A stretch of DNA of 64,000 bases, from positions 11,947 to 75,946 of the forward strand of contig JAUWQO010000001.1 in assembly GCA_030610995.1 (NCBI GenBank), read 5' to 3'. This DNA is from Desulfobacterales bacterium. GTDB taxonomy: Bacteria > Desulfobacterota > Desulfobacteria > Desulfobacterales > ETH-SRB1. Positions within the stretch are counted from its first letter, which is position 1. Each line of letters starts with the position of its first letter. This document shows positions 4,499 to 61,330 of the stretch, one piece after another. Both the position numbers and the translations under genes were made by a program. A model generated the notes under the pieces. That model was not told the origin of the DNA. It did no database searches and worked only from the letters and a program-made list of their open reading frames with translations.

Positions 4499-5035
4499 AT
4501 GAGACATCGAAAGGCTGGTTTGAAATTAAACAGGACAAGCAGTCACAGGAATGCCATGTTTAGAAATATGGTTACCTCACTTTTTAAGCATGAGCGAATC
4601 CGCACTACAGATACTAAGGCAAAGGGCTTGAGGCACTGGGCAGACCATTTGATTACTCTGGCTAAACGGGGAGATTTGCATGCCAGACATCAGGCCCTTT
4701 CGATTGTAAGGGAAAAGAATGTCGTTCACAAACTATTTGATGAAGCTGCCGAGCGGTTTGGCTCTATATTCGGAGGCTATACCAGAATTATTAAGATGGG
4801 AAGACGTCCCGGAGATGCCGCTCCTGTGTCTATGATTGAACTTGTAGGCGCTGAAAAGGGTAAAAAGAAGAAAATCAAGGACAAAAAGCCGGCTGGAGCA
4901 GAAAAGAAGAAAACCGCAGAGAAAAAGCAGGCTGTTGATAAAAAAGTCCCATCAGATAAAGCAGAGAAAAAGGCTGTTGATAAAGAAGTCCCATCAGATA
5001 AACCCGAAGAGAGCGTAGAAAAAAAAGAGGATTAA
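4499..5035 (+). CDS. rplQ: 50S ribosomal protein L17 with a Lys-rich C-terminal extension
   Basis: 178 aa. The L17 core covers roughly residues 1-117 ('[17 protein letters not shown]'). A ~60-aa K/E/A-rich tail follows and contains a tandem duplication. Confidence 0.95.
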
Positions 5036-5046
5036 GGAGTAAGGAT

Positions 5047-5221
5047 TAATTTAGCGCTTTAAAAACCTGTCTAATTTCCTTGAGAAGTAAAATATTGCCA
5101 ATTCAAGTTGTCATCATTTGAATGTCGAATGTCGAACAAGGAATTTCGAATTAAGAAGGCTTGTTCGTTGCGGTTTACTTCGACATTCATAATTCCTTGT
5201 TCGATATTCTGCGGTTCAAAA
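5047..5221. repeat. inverted-repeat element (family E, copy 1)
   Basis: 'gaatgtcgaatgtcgaacaaggaatttcgaat' faces 'tacttcgacattcataattccttgttcgatattctgcggttcaaaa'. The right arm is identical over 46 nt to 34666-34711. Confidence 0.85.
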
Positions 5222-5249
5222 ACCCTTATCAAAGTTATATCTTTATCCC

Positions 5250-6260
5250 TTAATCCTTAATCCTTTTATACGCAGCCAGCGCTTCTTCCTGCAAAAGGTC
5301 TTCCATGCCTGAGTACCTTGGTGAAAAATGAAAAAGTGTGAATTGTTTTACCCCGGCCATGCCTGCTATCGTTCCGGCATTTCTGGCTGTGAGATGAAAT
5401 TTTTTTTCGGCAATATCTTTATCTTTTTCAAGAAAAGCAGCCTCAATAAAAAGGTGGTCCGCATCCTTTGCGAATTCCACCGCCTTTTCAATATTGGGTT
5501 TGCAATATAACATGTCGGTAATATAGGTAATTTTTTGGCCTGGAGTTATTATTGCAATCCGATTCGTAAGATCCCCTAATATAAATCCCTTTTTTCTTAT
5601 ATTTTCTTGTCCCAATTTAACATCAAATTTTGAATCAGGATCTTGATGATTAAAGAGAGCCTGTTTAAATTCTCTAAGCCATGGGCCGATTTCAAGCCCA
5701 AGATCGATCAGCCTCTCTTTTATTATATTAACGTGAAACCGTTCCTTAATTGTAAAACCAAGGCACGGAATTTTATGATTAAGCACTACTGAAGAGAAGG
5801 TCAGCGCAGGTTCTTTAAAGAGGATGCCGTTAAACGGTTGCTTTATGGCGCTTTTGGAAGCTGTAAATCTATTTTTGCATCGGTACTGTCTGGTTATAAG
5901 CTGCTTAGCATGTACTTCGGTAATATACAGGGTGAATCGATTGTTGAAGTTTTCTACAAGGTTCCATGAATATCCGGCAAGTTTTCCCTCGACATTTTTT
6001 AAAAAGCCTTTGGGGCCGTACATATAAAGTTTTTTTTCACGTCCCAAAAACAGACGCAGCAGCCTGTCAAAGCCAACAAAATGATCCATATGAGTATGAG
6101 ATATAAAAACATGACTAATTTTGAGAAGATCCTTTGCTGAAAGAGAATAAATATCGCCCAGATCGAAAATTACGGCGCGTTTCTCAAAAAAAAAGGGTAT
6201 GAACAGGCCGGGGTCCTCAAAGGGGCTGTTTATTAGCCTGGGATGAAATAAGGAGCGCAT
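5250..6260 (-). CDS. MBL-fold metallo-hydrolase (RNase Z-like)
   Basis: 336 aa with the 'HTHMDH' metallo-beta-lactamase motif. The specific function is not resolved. Confidence 0.75.
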   Translation of the reverse strand: MRSLFHPRLINSPFEDPGLFIPFFFEKRAVIFDLGDIYSLSAKDLLKISHVFISHTHMDHFVGFDRLLRLFLGREKKLYMYGPKGFLKNVEGKLAGYSWNLVENFNNRFTLYITEVHAKQLITRQYRCKNRFTASKSAIKQPFNGILFKEPALTFSSVVLNHKIPCLGFTIKERFHVNIIKERLIDLGLEIGPWLREFKQALFNHQDPDSKFDVKLGQENIRKKGFILGDLTNRIAIITPGQKITYITDMLYCKPNIEKAVEFAKDADHLFIEAAFLEKDKDIAEKKFHLTARNAGTIAGMAGVKQFTLFHFSPRYSGMEDLLQEEALAAYKRIKD

Positions 6261-15392: not shown

Positions 15393-15542
15393 TAATTTGT
15401 TCCTATTGTTAAATAGTGTCACGAAAACCCTATTAACCATGATTAAATAAGGCTTTGCACTATATTTATACACATGAAGTTAGTACCTGTTAGGTGTTAG
15501 CATTTAGCTGTTAAATGAAGACCTTTGCATAACTCCAGTATT

Positions 15543-15623
15543 GTCATTGCGAGCGAAGCGAAGCAATCTCATAACACATTGATAAGCCACGAGATTGCCG
15601 CGTCGCTTTGCTCCTCGCAATGA
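15543..15623. repeat. 'gtcattgcgag...ctcgcaatgac' hairpin (family B)
   Basis: 'gtcattgcgagcgaagcgaagcaatctc' faces 'gagattgccgcgtcgctttgctcctcgcaatgac'. Related copies at 36184-36264 and 26892-26976. Nested within the outer inverted repeat 'gaagacctttgcataac'/'gttatgcaaaggtctc'. Confidence 0.9.
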
Positions 15624-16109: not shown

Positions 16110-16266
16110 GTAAGCGTTCACGGAACGTTGAAATTGGAAATTAGAAACTGGAAATTAGGCATTCATGCTTTTGTACTGTTCTTCCCAATTTCCAATTTCA
16201 AATTTCTAATTTAATCTCTCCCAAATTTCTAATTTCTATTTTCAAGTTTCAAGCCGTGAACGGCTA
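16110..16266. repeat. family C element ('GTARSCGTTCACGG' termini, 'gaaattg/caatttc' word arms), copy 1
   Basis: About 90% identical to the reverse complement of 21133-21290. Flanked by 'aataattg' at 16102-16109 and at 16267-16274. Confidence 0.9.
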
Positions 16267-18039: not shown

Positions 18040-18415
18040 ATTGCCTCCTGTTTGATTATCAATCAAAGAACATGGGATATAAAACCTGGCCCTCAGGATT
18101 CTTTACTCCCATAAAATTTTATATAATGCAATATTCATGAGACCTTTGAACCGCAAAGGCGAGCGCATTCCCCGCAACTTACTGCGGGGAGCTTCTCATC
18201 TGTTTAGAGGCAGATGGCTTGGGCATGCCCAGTTTGATAGAAGTCTCTTGATATTATCCCTGATTTGATTTAAGAGATTGAATACAATAAATACAACGCG
18301 TAGATTTAAGTGAAAATTTCTAATTTTATAAAGTTAATTATGCTTTTATGCAAGCGACAGGAATGGTAACTGATCATACGGCAGATTGTTTTCGATATAA
18401 GGAAATCTATCTGAC

Positions 18416-21132: not shown

Positions 21133-21290
21133 GTAGCCGTTCACGGCTTGAAACTTGAAATTGGAAAGTAGAAATTTGGGAGAGATTAAATTAGAAACTT
21201 GAAATTGGAAATTGGGAAGAACAGTACAAAAGCATGAAGGCCAAGTTTCCAATTTCCAATTTCCAATTTCAACGTTCTGTGAACGGTTAC
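21133..21290. repeat. family C element, copy 2
   Basis: 'gtagccgttcacggcttgaaacttgaaattgg...ccaatttcaacgttctgtgaacggttac'. The right terminus contains the recJ stop codon. Confidence 0.9.
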
Positions 21291-36183: not shown

Positions 36184-36264
36184 GTCATTGCGAGGAGCAA
36201 AGCGACGTGGCAATCTTGTGGATTATCAACATGTTTTGAGATTGCTTCGCTTCGCTCGCAATGA
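36184..36264. repeat. family B hairpin
   Basis: 'gtcattgcgaggagcaaagcgacgtggcaatct' faces 'gagattgcttcgcttcgctcgcaatgac'. Reverse orientation of 15543-15623. Confidence 0.9.
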
Positions 36265-36346
36265 CAATGCCGAGGTTTTTCAAAGGTCTTTTTTTGAGCC
36301 TTGGTGGCCGAACTATTACAAACTTATTTTAAAAAAGGAGAATAAA

Positions 36347-51329: not shown

Positions 51330-51443
51330 GTAGCCGTTCACGGCTTGAAACTTGAAATTGGAAAGTAGAAATTGGGAAGAACAGTATAAAAGCATGAAGC
51401 CCAAATTTCCAATTTCTAATTTCAATGTTCCGTAAACGGTTAC
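51330..51443. repeat. family C element, copy 3 (shorter)
   Basis: 'gtagccgttcacggcttgaaacttgaaattggaaagtagaaattgggaagaacagtataaaagcatgaag...ccgtaaacggttac'. Nested in the outer inverted repeat 'aaccattcagccacagat'/'atctgtggctgaatagtt'. Confidence 0.9.
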
Positions 51444-55583: not shown

Positions 55584-55658
55584 GCGGGAATAACTCAGCG
55601 GTAGAGTGCGACCTTGCCAAGGTCGAAGTCGCGGGTTCAAATCCCGTTTCCCGCTCCA
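55584..55658 (+). tRNA. tRNA-Gly (anticodon GCC)
   Basis: Hand-folded cloverleaf. Acceptor gcgggaa/ttcccgc, anticodon stem cgacc/ggtcg, loop 'ttGCCaa', T-loop 'ttcaaat', encoded CCA. Confidence 0.93.
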
Positions 55659-55693
55659 CTTTTTGAGTTTTGGTATTTTGAGTTTTGGTTTTT

Positions 55694-55768
55694 GGCGGCA
55701 TAGCCAAGTGGTAAGGCAGCGGTCTGCAAAACCGCTATTCACCAGTTCGAATCTGGTTGCCGCCTCCA
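55694..55768 (+). tRNA. tRNA-Cys (anticodon GCA)
   Basis: Acceptor ggcggca/tgccgcc, anticodon stem gcggt/accgc, loop 'ctGCAaa', T-loop 'ttcgaat', encoded CCA. Confidence 0.93.
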
Positions 55769-55787
55769 TAAAATTTGATGGCATCAT

Positions 55788-55822
55788 AAAAAGTCACATC
55801 TATAGTTAAATTTGTGACTTTT
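55788..55822 (+). terminator. hairpin after tRNA-Cys (possible terminator)
   Basis: 'aaaaagtcaca' N14 'tgtgactttt'. The loop is long and the U-tract lies within the stem. Confidence 0.35.
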
Positions 55823-55879
55823 GCAAACCTCTCCATTGGTCTCCGGTTAGTATGAACCGCAACAGCGAGCGCATTCCCC

Positions 55880-55941
55880 TCCATTCTAAATTTTCAAGAG
55901 CTATTGCCAAAAATCTTGATCTTGAAAACCTCTATATCGCG
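55880..55941 (+). repeat. 62-nt duplicate of codons ~9-29 of the EndoQ-UvrD gene (left copy)
   Basis: 'tccattctaaattttcaagagc..gccaaaaatcttga.cttgaaaacctctatat.gcg' differs from 57917-57978 at 6 positions, mostly synonymous in the gene frame. Confidence 0.9.
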
Positions 55942-55981
55942 CCCCGTTATAACCCTTTCCGTACCTTGGGGACGCCCTCGA

Positions 55982-56079
55982 CTAATTAGACTTAGGGCTA
56001 TTTAACCGATAAAGCGTTTTAGCAATTGCAGAAGGCGACACCCCAGATGACGGCCGGCTTCAGTCAGCGAAACACCCAT
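55982..56079 (-). pseudogene. frameshifted remnant of a small helix-turn-helix protein
   Basis: Hand translation gives 'MGVSLTEAGRHLG' then, after a frame change, 'VSPSAIAKTLYRLNSPKSN*'. Looks like an HTH recognition helix, about 32 aa in total. Confidence 0.35.
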
Positions 56080-56173
56080 GATTTTATGCGTCTATTTTCT
56101 CATCCATAATCTTAATTTCATGCTAAACTGATATCGGATTTTGTGTGTTATAAATCTCTTGGCAATGCAATAG

Positions 56174-56272
56174 TTTTCCTTCAATATTGCAATATTGTAT
56201 TTTTGAAGGAAAACCAATGTCTTCTTGAAATGTTTTCCTTCGATTTATGAAAAAGAATTAAAAGAAGGAAAT
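56174..56272 (+). promoter_or_regulatory. two operator-like inverted repeats upstream of and overlapping the start of the NTase-fold gene
   Basis: 'ttttccttcaa' N18 'ttgaaggaaaa' (56174-56213) and 'ttttccttcga' N19 'agaaggaaat' (56233-56272). Confidence 0.4.
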
Positions 56273-56275
56273 CTT

Positions 56276-57280
56276 ATGATTTTCAAGGAAATGACTGACA
56301 ACCAGCGGCGTGTTTTTATTGATACTATACAGCTTTACGAAGCATTTGTAGCAGCATTTAATAAAAATAGGTCATACAGAGGCGGCATGCACTGGAAAAA
56401 GTCAAAAGGTCGCGAATATTTGTTTAGATCTCGAGATCGTTTTGGCTACGGCAAAAGTTTAGGGCCGAGATCTCCTGAAACTGAAAAAATTCTCGCCCAG
56501 TTTCAACAAAGCAAGCAGCGTGAAAAGGAACGTCTGTCAGCGCTCAAAGATCGGCTTAAAGAGCAGTCCAGATTCTGCAAGGCTGCGCTGATTCAGCGAG
56601 TACCTCGGATTGTTAGCAGTATTTTACGATTGCTGGATCAGCAAAATATTCTCGGTCGAAATGTAATGGTGATCGGCACCAATGCAATGTATGCCTACGA
56701 AGCATCTGCGGGTGTGTTTTTTGACATGGATATTCTATGGGATATTCGTCCGAAACTTATTCTTGTTGCTGATAAGGATATAGATAATACTGGCTTGTTA
56801 GGTATTATTCGAAAAGCGGATCGGTCTTTTGAATCTATCAGTCCGGGTGGATTCCGAGCTGTAAACCGTGATGGATACATGGTGGATCTGATAAAATCAG
56901 AACCAAAGCAGTTGCTCAGAAAGGAAACAAGGCGGATGGGCGGGCCGGATGATCTGGAAGCCGCTGAAATTCGGAATCTTCAATGGCTTATTTCTTCTCC
57001 GAAGTTTTCTCAGGTCGTCATAGGAGACGATGGATATCCTGCTTCATTAGTTGTTCCTGATCCACGGGTATTTGCCTTGCATAAATTATGGTTAAGTGAA
57101 CAAGCGGATCGTGAACCAGTAAAAAAGCAGCGGGATCATGATCAGGGGTTGGCGGTCGCTCAACTCATTATTCAATATCTGCCACAATATCAGTTTAATA
57201 CATCTGAGCTTCGCATGTTTCCAAAGGATGTGGTTCAGAAAGCAAAAGAAAAGATTTCAGATATGAAAGTTAGGGGTTGA
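56276..57280 (+). CDS. nucleotidyltransferase-fold protein (GSU2403 / NTP_transf_8-like, by recollection)
   Basis: 334 aa from the ATG, with AAGGA upstream. 'VMVIGTNAMYAYEASAGVFFDMDILWD' resembles a minimal NTase G[ST]..D.D core. Family assignment unverified. Confidence 0.55.
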   Translation: MIFKEMTDNQRRVFIDTIQLYEAFVAAFNKNRSYRGGMHWKKSKGREYLFRSRDRFGYGKSLGPRSPETEKILAQFQQSKQREKERLSALKDRLKEQSRFCKAALIQRVPRIVSSILRLLDQQNILGRNVMVIGTNAMYAYEASAGVFFDMDILWDIRPKLILVADKDIDNTGLLGIIRKADRSFESISPGGFRAVNRDGYMVDLIKSEPKQLLRKETRRMGGPDDLEAAEIRNLQWLISSPKFSQVVIGDDGYPASLVVPDPRVFALHKLWLSEQADREPVKKQRDHDQGLAVAQLIIQYLPQYQFNTSELRMFPKDVVQKAKEKISDMKVRG

Positions 57281-57588
57281 ATTTAGGCGTTTCTTTTTCA
57301 TTTGTTTAGGAAATCTATGGGACTCCTCAGTTTATAAGTTTATATCGTCAAGAAATGAATATAGATTTTCTTTTGCAATTTTCTTCCTGTCTTTACACAA
57401 ACTCCGAAAGAAACAGGTGGGCTGAACATATCCTGATACCTTCCTTTGTGATCAGATCAATATCCCCCCCGGCGCTCAACCCACCCGGTTAAGGGCGGCG
57501 ATATGCAAAAAAATAATCTCCAGTTGCCTTTCAGCATTACACATGATAAATTATTTTATAGTGTGTGAAAAGAATAAGGAGGAAAAAT

Positions 57589-57789
57589 ATGGCCACTAAT
57601 TTAGCAATTGACGACAAATTAATCGAAGAAGCCCGTTTAGTTGGTCTACATCGTACCAAAAAAGCAGTTGTTACTGAAGCGCTCATTGAGTACATCCAAA
57701 GGCGCAAACAGGTTGAAATTATTAACCTGTTTGGCACGATAGAATATAAGTCAGATTATAATTATAAAGAACAGTGGAAGGTTAAATGA
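57589..57789 (+). CDS. vapB: VapB-type (RHH) antitoxin, with no cognate toxin gene
   Basis: 66 aa. 'MATNLAIDDKLIEEARLVGLHRTKKAVVTEALIEYIQRRKQ', with AGGAGG upstream. Only 96 nt separate it from the next gene, and no PIN ORF is present. Confidence 0.7.
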   Translation: MATNLAIDDKLIEEARLVGLHRTKKAVVTEALIEYIQRRKQVEIINLFGTIEYKSDYNYKEQWKVK

Positions 57790-57891
57790 ATGATTTCAAT
57801 CATTATAAAAAATAAAATGCGTATCAAGGCTTTAAAATCGTTCGGTTTTGTAAATATTTCGGAAAATTCTTGAGTCTAATTTCAGGTGCTT

Positions 57892-60800
57892 ATGAAATTT
57901 ATTGCCGATTTTCATGTCCATTCTAAATTTTCAAGAGCCACGGCCAAAAATCTTGACCTTGAAAACCTCTATATTGCGGCTCAATTAAAAGGCATTACTG
58001 TTGTTGGAACAGGCGATTTTACACATCCCGGCTGGTTTGCGGAAATAAAGGAAAAATTAAAGCCGGCAGAGGAAGGGCTTTTTAAATTAAAAAGGGAAAT
58101 CGCCGGGGAATGCGACGAAAAGGTCCCGTTATCCTGCCGCGGCAAGGTTCGTTTTGTCCTGGTTTCTGAGATCAGCAATATCTATAAAAAAAATAATAAA
58201 ACCCGTAAAAATCATAATCTTGTATTTGTGCCCGACCTGGATGTTGCCTGTAAATTTAGTTCAAAACTGGATAAGATCGGAAATATTAAATCTGATGGAA
58301 GGCCTATACTTGGGCTTGATGCAAGAAATCTTCTTGAAATACTTCTTGAGACATCCGACAGATCTTTTTTGATTCCCGCCCATATATGGACGCCATGGTT
58401 CTCGGTTCTTGGTTCAAAGTCCGGGTTTAACTCTATCAGTGAATGTTTTGAGGATCTTACCCCCCATATATTTGCCGCTGAAACAGGCCTTTCATCCGAT
58501 CCGCCGATGAACTGGCGTGTATCAAGCCTTGACAACCTTACCCTTGTATCAAATTCAGATGCCCACTCTCCGTTAAAACTCGGTCGGGAGGCAAATCTTT
58601 TCAACACCAACCTTTCATATTCCGCAATAAGAGATGCAATAAAGACGGGTGATCGCAAGCATTTCTTAGGCACCTTTGAATTTTATCCTGAAGAAGGAAA
58701 ATATCATCTGGACGGACACCGCAAATGCTCTGTTTGTCTTTGGCCAAAAAAAACTATAAAAAATAAAGGAATATGTCCGGTTTGCGGGAAACCTTTGACC
58801 ATAGGAGTATTATATCGCGTTGAAGAATTGGCGGATCGGCCAAAGCATGAAAAGCCGCAGAAAACCCACCCTTATTACAGCATAGTTCCTCTGGTCAATA
58901 TTTTATCAGAAATATTAAAGGTCGGTCCAGGGTCAAAAAAGGTCATGAATAATTACAATACAGCGCTTGATATTCTTGGCCCGGAATTGAGTATACTTCA
59001 CAATCTATCTCCGGAGGCCATTGATAAGGCCGGCATTCCGCTGCTTGGTGAGGCTGTAAAAAGGATGCGCAGGGAAGAAATCGATATTTCCCCTGGATAT
59101 GATGGCGAGTTTGGCCGCGTGAAGATATTTAAAGACCAGGAGCGTGAACGTTTGATGGGCCAGAAATCACTATTTATCATGCCGGAGACAGATTCGACGA
59201 CAAAGGCGCATAAAAGATACATAACAAAACAACAAAATAGAAAAACAGAGCTTAAGCAGCCTTCACAAGATTTTGGAAGCCTGCGGTCGTCAAGAGGCAA
59301 GGGTTTAAATACGCAGCAACGACAGGCAGTTTGCCACGATGGGGGGCCTTTATTGATTGTCGCAGGACCCGGGACCGGCAAAACCCATACCATTACCTGC
59401 AGGATAGCCTGCCTGATAAAAGAAAAAAATGTTTTACCGGAAAGTATTCTTGCAGTAACATTTACAAATAAGGCTGCCAGGGAAATGAAAGACCGGATTA
59501 AACGCATCACAGGAAGTAACGTGATCCCAAATGTAAGCACCTTTCACTCATTATGCTTAAAAATTTTAAAGGACAGGGGAAATAATCAGACTCATACCAT
59601 TGTCGATGACGATGATCGAATGGCTCTGATTTCAGAGGCGATAAAACAGGCTGACGCCGGAGGCTGTAAGGTATCTTTGTCAAAAAAGTATCTGTTAGAC
59701 AAAATTATATCAGCCAAACAGCAGATACTGCAGCCCCATGATAATTTAGAAGGGGTGGCCGGAAAGGCTGAAATAAATACATTCGCAAGGGTATATCAAG
59801 CATATCAGGACATTTTATCTGCCCAGTCCCTTTACGATTTTGAAGATCTTATATTAAAAGTAGTCCTGCGTTTTGAAGCAGACAAACAATTTACCAATAT
59901 CTACCGGCAACGTTTCAAGTATATATTTGTGGATGAATACCAGGACATAAACCATGGCCAATACCGGATTATAAAAGCCCTGGCTCCGCCTGACAAGGAT
60001 CTTTGCGTTATCGGTGATCCAAATCAATCGATTTACGGTTTCCGAGGTTCCGATGTTCGCTTTTTTGAGCGCTTTCTTGAGGATTATCCACAGGGCAGTA
60101 TTATTCATCTAAATCAAAATTATCGCTCTACTCAGACTATTCTTGAAGCTTCTTATCAGATCATAACAAACCGTAGCATAGATACAAAAACAGATAATCT
60201 TTCAAACTCGCGTGTTTATTCCCAGATAGACGGCGTAAAAACGATCAGTATTCTTGAACTCGCCTCTGAAAAAGCAGAAGCAGTGGCTATAGGCAAAACA
60301 ATTGAAGCCCTGACAGGAGGACTATCCTTTCATGCCATAGATTCAGGCAAGATTGAGGATATAAATACCAAAGAAGACAGAAGCTTTTCAGATTTTGCTG
60401 TTTTGTATCGTACCAACAGCCAGAGTAAAATAATTGAGCAGGTTTTTGAAAAAGCGGGAATTCCCTGCCAAATCGCAAGCAGAGAAAGTCTGTTCAGACA
60501 GAAAGGGGTCACAGAGCTTATTTCTATGCTTAAGATCATAGATGGGCAGGGCTCCTTTGCCGACCTTAAAAGGACAGTTAAGTTATTATCAACCGGCATC
60601 AGCGACGAGACGATAAAAATATTTACGAGATGGTGCTGCCGGAATCATTTTACTTTAACAAAAGGATTTTATAATGCCCGGCGTTTCCCAATACCCGGTA
60701 TGAGCAAAGCCCGCCAGTCGAAATTCCATAATTTTTTAGTCGAGTTGTCTGGATTGCAAAAGGCTGTTAATGAGAAAAGTGTGGAAGAAAAACTTCATTT

Positions 60801-61302
60801 TATTGTAAATAACACTAAACTTGCTTCGACGTTAAAACAGCATCCCAAAAGAAATGAGGCTGTGGACAGGCTGACAGGGATGTCTAAGGAGTTTGGCGAT
60901 AATGCGGCGAACTTTTTTGAGATGACGGCTCTGCAGACAGATACGGATATATACGATTCACGGGCTGAAAAGGTCGCCTTAATGACCATGCATGCTGCCA
61001 AGGGCCTGGAATTTCCGGTGGTTTTTATTGCCGGATGCGAAAAAGAGTTTATTCCCTTTATAAGGCCCGGAGAAGAGCTTGTTGATATTGATGAAGAAAG
61101 AAGACTTTTTTACGTGGCCATGACCCGTGCAAGGGAAAGATTGTATTTAACTATGGCAAAAAAGCGGACGATATATGGGAAGCGCACTTTAAGAACAATT
61201 TCACCTTTTGTGGAAGATATTGAGCAAAGGTTGATGAAACGTAAAAAGAGCTATTTGAAAAGGAAGGAAAAAGAAAGCCGGCTTCAACTTACATTGTTTT
61301 AA
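57892..61302 (+). CDS. fusion protein: EndoQ-like PHP endonuclease (N-terminal ~415 aa) plus UvrD/PcrA-type SF1 DNA helicase (C-terminal ~670 aa)
   Basis: EndoQ-order motifs 'DFHVHSKFSRA', 'GTGDFTHPGW', 'PAHIWTPW', 'SNSDAHSP', 'GKYHLDGH', zinc finger 'CSVC..CPVCGKPL', 'PGYDGEFG'. Helicase motifs 'GPGTGKTHT', 'FVDEYQDIN', 'GDPNQSIYGFRG', 'NYRST', 'MHAAKGLEFPVVF', 'YVAMTRARERL'. Confidence 0.85.
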   Translation: MKFIADFHVHSKFSRATAKNLDLENLYIAAQLKGITVVGTGDFTHPGWFAEIKEKLKPAEEGLFKLKREIAGECDEKVPLSCRGKVRFVLVSEISNIYKKNNKTRKNHNLVFVPDLDVACKFSSKLDKIGNIKSDGRPILGLDARNLLEILLETSDRSFLIPAHIWTPWFSVLGSKSGFNSISECFEDLTPHIFAAETGLSSDPPMNWRVSSLDNLTLVSNSDAHSPLKLGREANLFNTNLSYSAIRDAIKTGDRKHFLGTFEFYPEEGKYHLDGHRKCSVCLWPKKTIKNKGICPVCGKPLTIGVLYRVEELADRPKHEKPQKTHPYYSIVPLVNILSEILKVGPGSKKVMNNYNTALDILGPELSILHNLSPEAIDKAGIPLLGEAVKRMRREEIDISPGYDGEFGRVKIFKDQERERLMGQKSLFIMPETDSTTKAHKRYITKQQNRKTELKQPSQDFGSLRSSRGKGLNTQQRQAVCHDGGPLLIVAGPGTGKTHTITCRIACLIKEKNVLPESILAVTFTNKAAREMKDRIKRITGSNVIPNVSTFHSLCLKILKDRGNNQTHTIVDDDDRMALISEAIKQADAGGCKVSLSKKYLLDKIISAKQQILQPHDNLEGVAGKAEINTFARVYQAYQDILSAQSLYDFEDLILKVVLRFEADKQFTNIYRQRFKYIFVDEYQDINHGQYRIIKALAPPDKDLCVIGDPNQSIYGFRGSDVRFFERFLEDYPQGSIIHLNQNYRSTQTILEASYQIITNRSIDTKTDNLSNSRVYSQIDGVKTISILELASEKAEAVAIGKTIEALTGGLSFHAIDSGKIEDINTKEDRSFSDFAVLYRTNSQSKIIEQVFEKAGIPCQIASRESLFRQKGVTELISMLKIIDGQGSFADLKRTVKLLSTGISDETIKIFTRWCCRNHFTLTKGFYNARRFPIPGMSKARQSKFHNFLVELSGLQKAVNEKSVEEKLHFIVNNTKLASTLKQHPKRNEAVDRLTGMSKEFGDNAANFFEMTALQTDTDIYDSRAEKVALMTMHAAKGLEFPVVFIAGCEKEFIPFIRPGEELVDIDEERRLFYVAMTRARERLYLTMAKKRTIYGKRTLRTISPFVEDIEQRLMKRKKSYLKRKEKESRLQLTLF
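57917..57978 (+). repeat. 62-nt repeat (right copy, inside the EndoQ-UvrD coding sequence)
   Basis: See 55880-55941. Confidence 0.9.
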
Positions 61303-61330
61303 TCAAAAGAATTCCTTGATGCTCTGTATC

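Follow-up and report, generated by a model that had tools for sequence, protein, structure and literature searches.

A duplicated gene start brackets a mosaic accessory insert in front of an EndoQ-like/UvrD gene in a Desulfobacterales bacterium

We analysed a 64,000-nucleotide (nt) stretch of DNA from a Desulfobacterales bacterium (assembly GCA_030610995.1, contig JAUWQO010000001.1, positions 11,947 to 75,946; hereafter the window) with a focus on a 62-nt direct repeat that duplicates part of the start of a gene encoding an EndoQ-like nuclease joined to a UvrD/PcrA-type helicase. The two copies bracket an insert of about 2 kb that is absent from the sister species. The left copy is a dead stub of the native gene start, and the right copy lies in the live gene, which takes its upstream region, ribosome-binding site and first codons from the insert. 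We consider it an even chance that the locus is an insertion-duplication scar left by a Campbell-type single crossover with circular DNA carrying a foreign 5' stub of the gene.

A repeat search of the window places the two copies at 55880-55941 and 57917-57978, with identity at 57 of 62 positions (92%) and five mismatches. An earlier, preliminary description of this DNA had recognized the repeat at the same coordinates and counted six mismatches. It had also placed the left copy beside tRNA-Cys, which is correct, at a distance of 112 nt, which is one too many: the copy starts 111 nt past the end of the tRNA at 55768. Its assignment of the right copy to codons 9-29 of the fusion gene (nt 26-87) holds, as does its view that the 62-mer is specific to this gene. 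A search for each half of the 62-mer with up to three mismatches allowed returned exactly two sites in the 64-kb window (0/100 shuffles). For comparison, orthologous loci were collected by a scan of one genome per species, which gave 80, and by a metagenome scan, which gave 80 more; about 125 loci include the 5' end of the gene. Wherever the 62-mer is found in relatives it occurs once per locus and always as codons 9-29 of the gene, and neither the window nor the ~125 related loci contain additional copies. A dispersed repeat is ruled out by this gene-specific position and by the presence of just two copies in the window.

Translated in frame, the left copy reads HSKFSRAIAKNLDLENLYIA and the right copy HSKFSRATAKNLDLENLYIA. 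Three codons differ synonymously, and a fourth differs at two positions (Thr to Ile). The left copy is thus former coding sequence with mostly synonymous differences, as the preliminary description had proposed, and its leader, ATG and alleles of the sister-species type identify it as the native allele. The duplication is wider than the 62-mer, because gene nt 1-3 and 26-87 are both present twice, the left side retaining the native leader and ATG.

The closest full-length orthologous locus (L001) comes from the sister species Ca. Desulfaltia bathyphila, and its gene is 92% identical to the window gene at the amino acid (aa) level and 94.5% identical at the nucleotide level. L001 presents the empty site that had been predicted for relatives: a tRNA-Gly and a tRNA-Cys are followed by the ATG of the gene 46 nt after tRNA-Cys, with no insert. 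The same tRNA pair stands upstream of the gene in the window, with tRNA-Gly at 55584-55658 and tRNA-Cys(GCA), the native upstream neighbour of the gene, at 55694-55768 on the plus strand (both identified by ARAGORN and Rfam). Upstream synteny between the window and L001 extends over 11 kb, and the window carries ~2.04 kb extra relative to L001. Downstream, synteny stops directly after the stop codon of the gene (window 61303-61316 versus L001 13463-13476), and the gene is therefore the edge of the conserved block. Among the loci that include the gene 5' end, tRNA-Cys lies upstream only in L001 and in L088, which is the same contig as L001, because the neighbours of the gene vary widely across lineages. 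A second copy of the gene 5' end was found in none of the ~125 loci.

The arrangement of the window recurs in L081 (ERZ4220937), an independent assembly of another sample in which a single contig runs from tRNA-Cys to the end of the gene with an identical organization. The only differences between L081 and the window are a 45-nt expansion of a tandem repeat between the tRNAs and six clustered single-nucleotide polymorphisms (SNPs) in a nucleotidyltransferase gene of the insert. The expansion affects the tRNA-Gly/tRNA-Cys spacer (55659-55693), where L081 has three more copies of the 15-nt tandem unit TTTTGAGTTTTGGTA. All six SNPs fall within 62 nt (56540-56601), and the cluster looks like a gene-conversion patch from another copy of the gene. 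Integration targeted to the tRNA was considered for this locus and is ruled out, as tRNA-Cys is not duplicated in any part and ends 170 nt before the insert. A structured RNA was likewise rejected: at the gathering threshold Rfam matched the two tRNAs alone, with nothing credible at E<1 in either region checked.

The left junction preserves the native start of the gene in a damaged form. On the plus strand, positions 55815-55854 hold the gene's native leader and ATG, now cut off from it by the insert; they align with L001 9957-10003, which covers the L001 start codon and the bases directly before it. In a three-way alignment the left copy (55880-55941, plus strand) is native nt 26-87, now a dead stub, with 60 of 62 positions identical to L001. 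At gene nt 48, 51 and 66 it carries the alleles of L001 and of the loci L067 and L079, and the right copy differs there. Native nt 4-25 (codons 2-8) are replaced by a 25-nt patch, AACCGCAACAGCGAGCGCATTCCCC (55855-55879, plus strand), which is 3 nt longer than the stretch it replaces and keeps the frame, leaving a 45-codon remnant open reading frame (ORF) at 55852-55989 that contains the left copy. An exact-protein look-up of this 45-aa stub returned only the window's own contig and L081. At the far end of the stub, gene nt 87 is followed by CCCCGTTATAAC; the joint falls between GCG and CCCC and shows no homology, and the left copy has CCCC on both sides. A 26-nt spacer, CCCCGTTATAACCCTTTCCGTACCTT (55942-55967), which was found only in the window and L081, separates the stub from a transposon end, and its CCCC is able to pair with the GGGG of the terminal repeat of that transposon.

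The patch belongs to a dispersed family resembling repetitive extragenic palindromic (REP) sequences. A second copy in the window (18149-18173) lies in a divergent intergenic region and has a CCCCGCA..TGCGGGG hairpin behind it, and related copies occur in L002 (directly after the gene stop), L079 (~150 nt upstream of the gene), L010 and L106. TTTG or TATG stands before every copy, and in the window and L079 this tetranucleotide is the TATG of the gene's own start context. Because the copies are dispersed and each follows TTTG or TATG, the patch is a small dispersed repeat fragment whose arrival in the stub was a secondary event. Rfam gave no match for the patch repeat, and scans of viral contigs and a distant plasmid BLAST matched neither the patch nor the insert ends. 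The hairpin beside the second copy, CCCCGCA-ACTTAC-TGCGGGG, occupies 18174-18193, and its loop sequence is also found beside the end of a Y1 element in L168 (135-185). In L079, ~154 nt starting with the patch repeat (5024-5180) are inserted directly after the TATG of the orthologous gene, which appears to continue via a new upstream ATG and a 28-aa N-terminal extension. We also considered whether the 62-mer separates two halves of a single unit, namely the patch (55855-55879) and the spacer (55942-55967); CCCC at either side and comparisons with L002 and L168 are suggestive, but the likeness past the 26-nt head is too weak for such a claim. Directly after tRNA-Cys, the window differs from L001 by a 37-nt indel (55778-55814) that has a promoter-like match and that, together with the start of the native leader, gives a 10-bp stem (AAAAGTCACA/TGTGACTTTT).

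The live gene (57892-61302, plus strand) encodes 1136 aa, of which domain searches assign the N-terminal 410 residues to TIGR00375 (the EndoQ-type PHP nuclease family) and the remainder to a UvrD/PcrA-type helicase. Its alleles are of two kinds. From nt 1 to 66 they are of the type found in L002, and from nt 116 onward they are of the L001 type. At sites where L001 and L002 disagree, the live gene matches L002 at nt 4, 15 and 66, and from nt 116 it matches L001 at 269 of 353 (Fisher p=0.014). When the sites are polarized with L067 and L079 as outgroups, a derived state is shared with L002 at 2/2 sites in nt 1-87 versus 7/78 in nt 88-1245 (p=0.011). The DNA just upstream of the live ATG, which contains a higA-like stub, is also of the L002 type. 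In addition, the two copies of the 62-mer differ from each other at 5 of 62 positions and from L001 at 2 and 3 of 62. Each copy is thus closer to L001 than to the other, and therefore the repeat is not a recent duplication within this genome.

These patterns point to a crossover between L002-type and L001-type alleles within nt 67-115, an interval that brackets the end of the duplication at nt 87. Because the informative sites are few, we regard the mosaic as supportive rather than conclusive. An exchange interval near nt 87 is what a single crossover would be expected to give, since only ~87 nt of homology would have been available to it. A whole-gene tandem duplication followed by deletion was rejected as less parsimonious, because the foreign type is confined to the first 66 nt of the live gene. 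The contig of a further relative, L003, begins at gene nt 67, inside the 62-mer and at the left edge of the crossover interval; this break may be due to variation between strains at nt 66 or to a structural variant. No terminator was predicted between the promoter of the vapB gene in the insert and the live gene. The live gene is probably read from promoters inside the insert, that of vapB being a candidate, with the native promoter now driving the 45-codon relic.

The insert (55942-57891) is a mosaic rather than one element: its six pieces have their own boundaries and distributions and are in part decayed. Apart from the spacer described above, it begins with the 3' end of an IS200-like (Y1_Tnp) element on the minus strand (55968-56091), recognized by tblastn and by alignment to an intact element in L118. 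This relic of 124 nt comprises a 24-nt terminal repeat (55968-55991) that matches both ends of the L118 element and a frameshifted remnant of the C-terminal helix-turn-helix (HTH) region of the transposase gene (55985-56091). The remnant amounts to ~35 C-terminal residues with no Y1 domain and is 97% identical to P0121; near-identical relics elsewhere adjoin Y1_Tnp fragments. It is the only mobility relic in the insert. At the right junction, the sequence AGTCTAATT (57871-57886) was considered as a second terminal repeat of the element and is better explained as an L002-type intergenic repeat, TCTAATTTCAAGT; the insert is therefore not bounded by two transposon ends.

The largest piece is a nucleotidyltransferase module on the plus strand (56157-57264), with a palindromic promoter/operator region at 56168-56219 and a coding sequence at 56276-57280. 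A 26-nt palindrome stands in front of the gene, whose product is an NTP_transf_8 or 'GSU2403-family' protein (PF12281, E 1e-48, 166.6 bits versus a cutoff of 26.3, residues 113-310). The block occurs in six unrelated contexts elsewhere at 85-92% nucleotide identity, with homology ending at 56157 and 57264. Protein alignment shows an 8-aa in-frame deletion beside a DxD-like motif and a replaced C-terminal tail. The missing residues, ISTMATKD, belong beside a DMD motif (56695-56730; residues ~167-173 of the 351-aa ORF), where homologues show small slippage deletions too. The tail replacement affects the last ~15 residues. The module is followed by filler (57265-57523) with no match in any fetched locus.

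Next on the plus strand is a vapBC module (57524-57830) comprising a promoter, an intact vapB (57589-57789, PF09957) and a 10-codon vapC relic (57786-57815). The module shares 94.5% identity with L173 400-672, behind which L173 has an intact PIN-domain vapC; relative to L173 the relic results from two internal deletions, and there is no usable VapC. The vapC 3' end and the flank of the module are also matched. An exact-protein look-up found VapB only in the window's own contig and in L081. An independent internal vapC deletion lies next to a 92%-identical vapB in L174 (5067-5150), and loss of the toxin with survival of an orphan antitoxin is therefore a recurrent event in this cassette family. 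The last piece, L002-type DNA on the plus strand (57826-57891), consists of the N-terminal stub of a higA-like HTH antitoxin (to 57863), L002-type intergenic remnants and an AGGTG ribosome-binding site. The higA-like stub aligns with L002 1262-1299, within an intact RelE/HigB-like and HTH pair upstream of the orthologous gene.

Much of this content had been seen correctly from the letters alone: the nucleotidyltransferase gene with its palindrome, an antitoxin without a usable toxin and the absence of an integrase all stand, as does the conclusion that the insert supplies a new upstream region, ribosome-binding site and first codons. What had been called an HTH remnant is also present, but it is the C terminus of a Y1 transposase together with a terminal repeat. 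No integrase or transposase ORF and no recombinase remnant was found between 55770 and 57900 in the ORF list or in Pfam scans of ORFs and remnants, and the insert was found neither as a unit nor beside an integrase in the genome, metagenome, viral and plasmid collections searched. No foreign base composition was detected in the insert. Membership of a defence system was rejected. The nucleotidyltransferase has no PADLOC or NCBIfam match and VapB no PADLOC match, and the helicase matches GajB-type models only via its generic UvrD core.

Single-crossover integration of a circle duplicates the homologous segment, and the structure of the locus is consistent with such an event. The left copy, made up of nt 1-3 and 26-87, breaks off at nt 87, whereas the right copy runs on into the gene. 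The alleles form reciprocal hybrids, with resident sequence in the upstream copy, incoming sequence at the start of the downstream copy and resident sequence beyond, as judged from few sites (p ~0.01). The ancestor would have had tRNA-Cys, a short leader and the EndoQ-like/UvrD gene, as Ca. Desulfaltia bathyphila still has. The donor would have been a circular or circularized DNA from another Desulfaltia-like lineage, carrying accessory modules and approximately the first 87 nt of its own copy of the gene. One reciprocal crossover with the chromosomal gene within these ~87 nt would strand the native promoter and start codon together with nt 1-87 on the upstream side, as a dead stub, and give the live gene a foreign upstream region, a ribosome-binding site and a foreign first ~66-87 nt. 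The catalyst would most likely have been ordinary homologous recombination, because no recombinase accompanies the insert and the exchange falls within extended homology. Decay would have followed on both sides: in the stub, a REP-like unit may have landed right after the ATG and been partly deleted to give the 25-nt patch, and one codon changed (Thr to Ile), while in the cargo vapC would have been deleted, the transposase truncated and the nucleotidyltransferase trimmed.

Several observations count against a single crossover with a circle. Neither a circular donor nor the donor arrangement was found in the collections searched, where the right-hand flank type of the insert is shared by L002 alone. 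These collections contain a single independent genome with an empty site. The lineage signal comes from just 3-4 informative sites in the first 87 nt (p ~0.01), and for RecA a substrate of 87 nt is short. A further event, independent of the crossover, is required for the 25-nt patch. The left copy has CCCC at either side and the end of a Y1 element nearby, which may hint at transposon-related processing, and a site-specific recombinase acting in trans may have been the catalyst.

The preliminary description had suggested a degraded integrative element with an att-like duplication, a reading in which an element with its own integrase, later lost, used the gene 5' end as attB and carried a replacement 5' end in attP, so that the 62-nt repeats are attL and attR. 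Direct repeats do flank an insert absent from the sister genome, the putative exchange lies inside or next to the repeat, and the restoration of the target gene by an element-borne 5' end would mirror that of e14 and phage 21 at icd, where the 3' end is concerned (PMC13626634). Yet the insert contains no integrase, excisionase or remnant of either, its modules occur separately elsewhere with sharp boundaries of their own, and its flanking filler was found nowhere else in our searches. With a second gene 5' end in 0 of ~125 related loci, there is no sign of an element family using this attB. The left junction is also not a clean att site, codons 2-8 being replaced by a piece of a dispersed repeat, and the association of the 2-kb segment with an integrase elsewhere, which had been suggested as a check, was not borne out. 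Two defining features of an integrative element, a recombinase and recurrence as a unit at the same attB, are therefore missing, and we consider this origin unlikely. Of the earlier proposal, the insertion, the empty site, the new 5' end and the lack of an integrase stand, but its att-like, site-specific origin is not supported; a crossover at nt 67-115 fits plain homologous recombination at least as well. Somewhat better placed, though still rather unlikely, is homology-facilitated illegitimate recombination of linear foreign DNA that entered by transformation or transduction. In this process one end is anchored by homology and the other is joined illegitimately (PMC3240628), here in the gene and at nt 87, respectively. 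The mosaic alleles speak for homologous exchange in the gene and the left joint between GCG and CCCC lacks homology. However, the usual outcome of this process is replacement or deletion of DNA of the recipient. It could yield a duplication only if the illegitimate joint lay within the anchored segment, and the homologous exchange would by chance have to be no more than ~30 nt away from that joint in a gene of 3.4 kb.

A role for an IS200-like Y1 (HUH) transposase, or for REP-like partner repeats, would involve aberrant cutting and rejoining of single-stranded DNA at pseudo-sites in the gene 5' end, with capture of nt 26-87. Several features fit this idea: 26 nt separate the left copy from the end of a Y1 element; upstream of the orthologous ATG, L118 carries an intact relative at a distance of 4 nt and L128 a solo end at 23 nt; the patch repeat always follows TTTG or TATG and in the window and L079 starts right after the gene's TATG; and CCCC brackets the left copy. 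The foreign lineage of the first 66 nt of the live gene and of the DNA upstream would nevertheless be left unexplained, the transposase here is a 35-aa relic only, and the likeness of patch plus spacer to other copies of the repeat is weak beyond the 26-nt head. Moreover, we know of no Y1 reaction that gives a direct duplication of target DNA. We regard such a capture as very unlikely. Least probable of all, and close to negligible, is an assembly artefact in which a chimeric contig was joined through the shared 62-mer. The source is evidently a metagenome assembly and the contig of L003 breaks at gene nt 67, which would suit such a join. Against this, both copies are present with unique flanks on both sides, and L081, assembled independently from a different sample, covers the whole locus in the same organization with no more than trivial differences, which shows that the arrangement was not created by the assembly.

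The classical natural analogue of the locus is prophage e14 in E. coli icd, which is flanked by icd and an icdC stub (PMC13626634, citing Hill et al. 1989). With e14, and with phage 21 at icd, an insert likewise lies inside the end of a conserved housekeeping gene, and the incoming DNA supplies a replacement end that leaves the gene intact. The displaced native end is a short pseudogene copy with mostly synonymous differences, and chimeric alleles arise from excision or insertion (PMC13626634). However, e14 is one coherent prophage that replaces the 3' end and has its own integrase and SOS-induced excision, whereas in the window the 5' end is replaced together with the promoter and start codon, there is no recombinase and the 2-kb insert is a mosaic of decaying modules. 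Campbell insertion-duplication, as obtained with a suicide plasmid carrying a gene fragment, also duplicates a gene fragment, truncates one copy and yields copies that are reciprocal hybrids of resident and incoming sequence; the event in the window differs from it in being natural and in involving only ~87 nt of homology.

In content, the insert resembles small islets of toxin-antitoxin and other accessory genes at variable genomic positions, with vapBC, higBA-like and nucleotidyltransferase cassettes that have sharp boundaries, ~90% identity in unrelated contexts and recurrent toxin loss. It differs from them in its position, within the 5' end of a repair gene instead of an intergenic hotspot, and in having probably taken over the expression signals of that gene. 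The Y1 pieces recall IS200/IS605 elements and the REP/RAYT system, in which RAYT genes are flanked by inverted REPs (PMC2817692). The L118 protein has a PF01797 Y1_Tnp domain with HUH and Tyr motifs and is flanked by inverted repeats, and the patch repeat is located 3' of a conserved tetranucleotide and next to a hairpin. Unlike these systems, however, the L118 protein has a long C-terminal HTH extension, and the ends of its element are perfect 24-nt terminal inverted repeats that occur in low copy in the data at hand.

Elements of these kinds stand at or near the start of the EndoQ-like/UvrD gene in several loci. In L118, an intact 1.06-kb element (4628-5692) is inserted 4 nt before the orthologous ATG; it codes for a 326-aa Y1_Tnp protein (PF01797, IS200-like) whose C terminus has an HTH, and its ends are perfect 24-nt inverted repeats. 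In L128 a solo end of a Y1 element (529-552) is found 23 nt before the orthologous ATG, in the window a Y1 end adjoins the stub, and in two lineages, represented by the stub in the window and by L079, a REP-like unit stands exactly after the TATG start. Conceivably, the gene start is a recurrent site of Y1/HUH landing and exchange in Desulfobacterales that drives swaps of promoters and first codons, with toxin-antitoxin and nucleotidyltransferase cassettes hitch-hiking and the orphan VapB controlling the gene. This generalization draws on a handful of loci (the window, L079, L118 and L128), and we think it quite unlikely.

With an empty site and alleles that can be traced, the locus is a clean example from nature of a conserved gene whose promoter and first codons were replaced by recombination while an accessory islet was installed in front of it. 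Beyond that example, the scar is an ordinary product of known recombination processes. Its insert illustrates that islets of this sort are put together from modules that move independently and decay rapidly, and that they do not arrive as one element. It also calls for caution in annotation, as the 45-codon ORF after tRNA-Cys is a stub and vapB is an orphan.

Elsewhere in the window, intergenic microsatellite-like repeat families (GAAATTGGAAATTAGAAA..., CGAACATCGAAC... and GTCGAGTAGTCGAG...) are present at 16131-16213, 21188-21270 and 51348-51430, and also in L002 at 1540-1600. In addition, L002 5326-5420 matches window positions 15535-15590 and 36218-36268.

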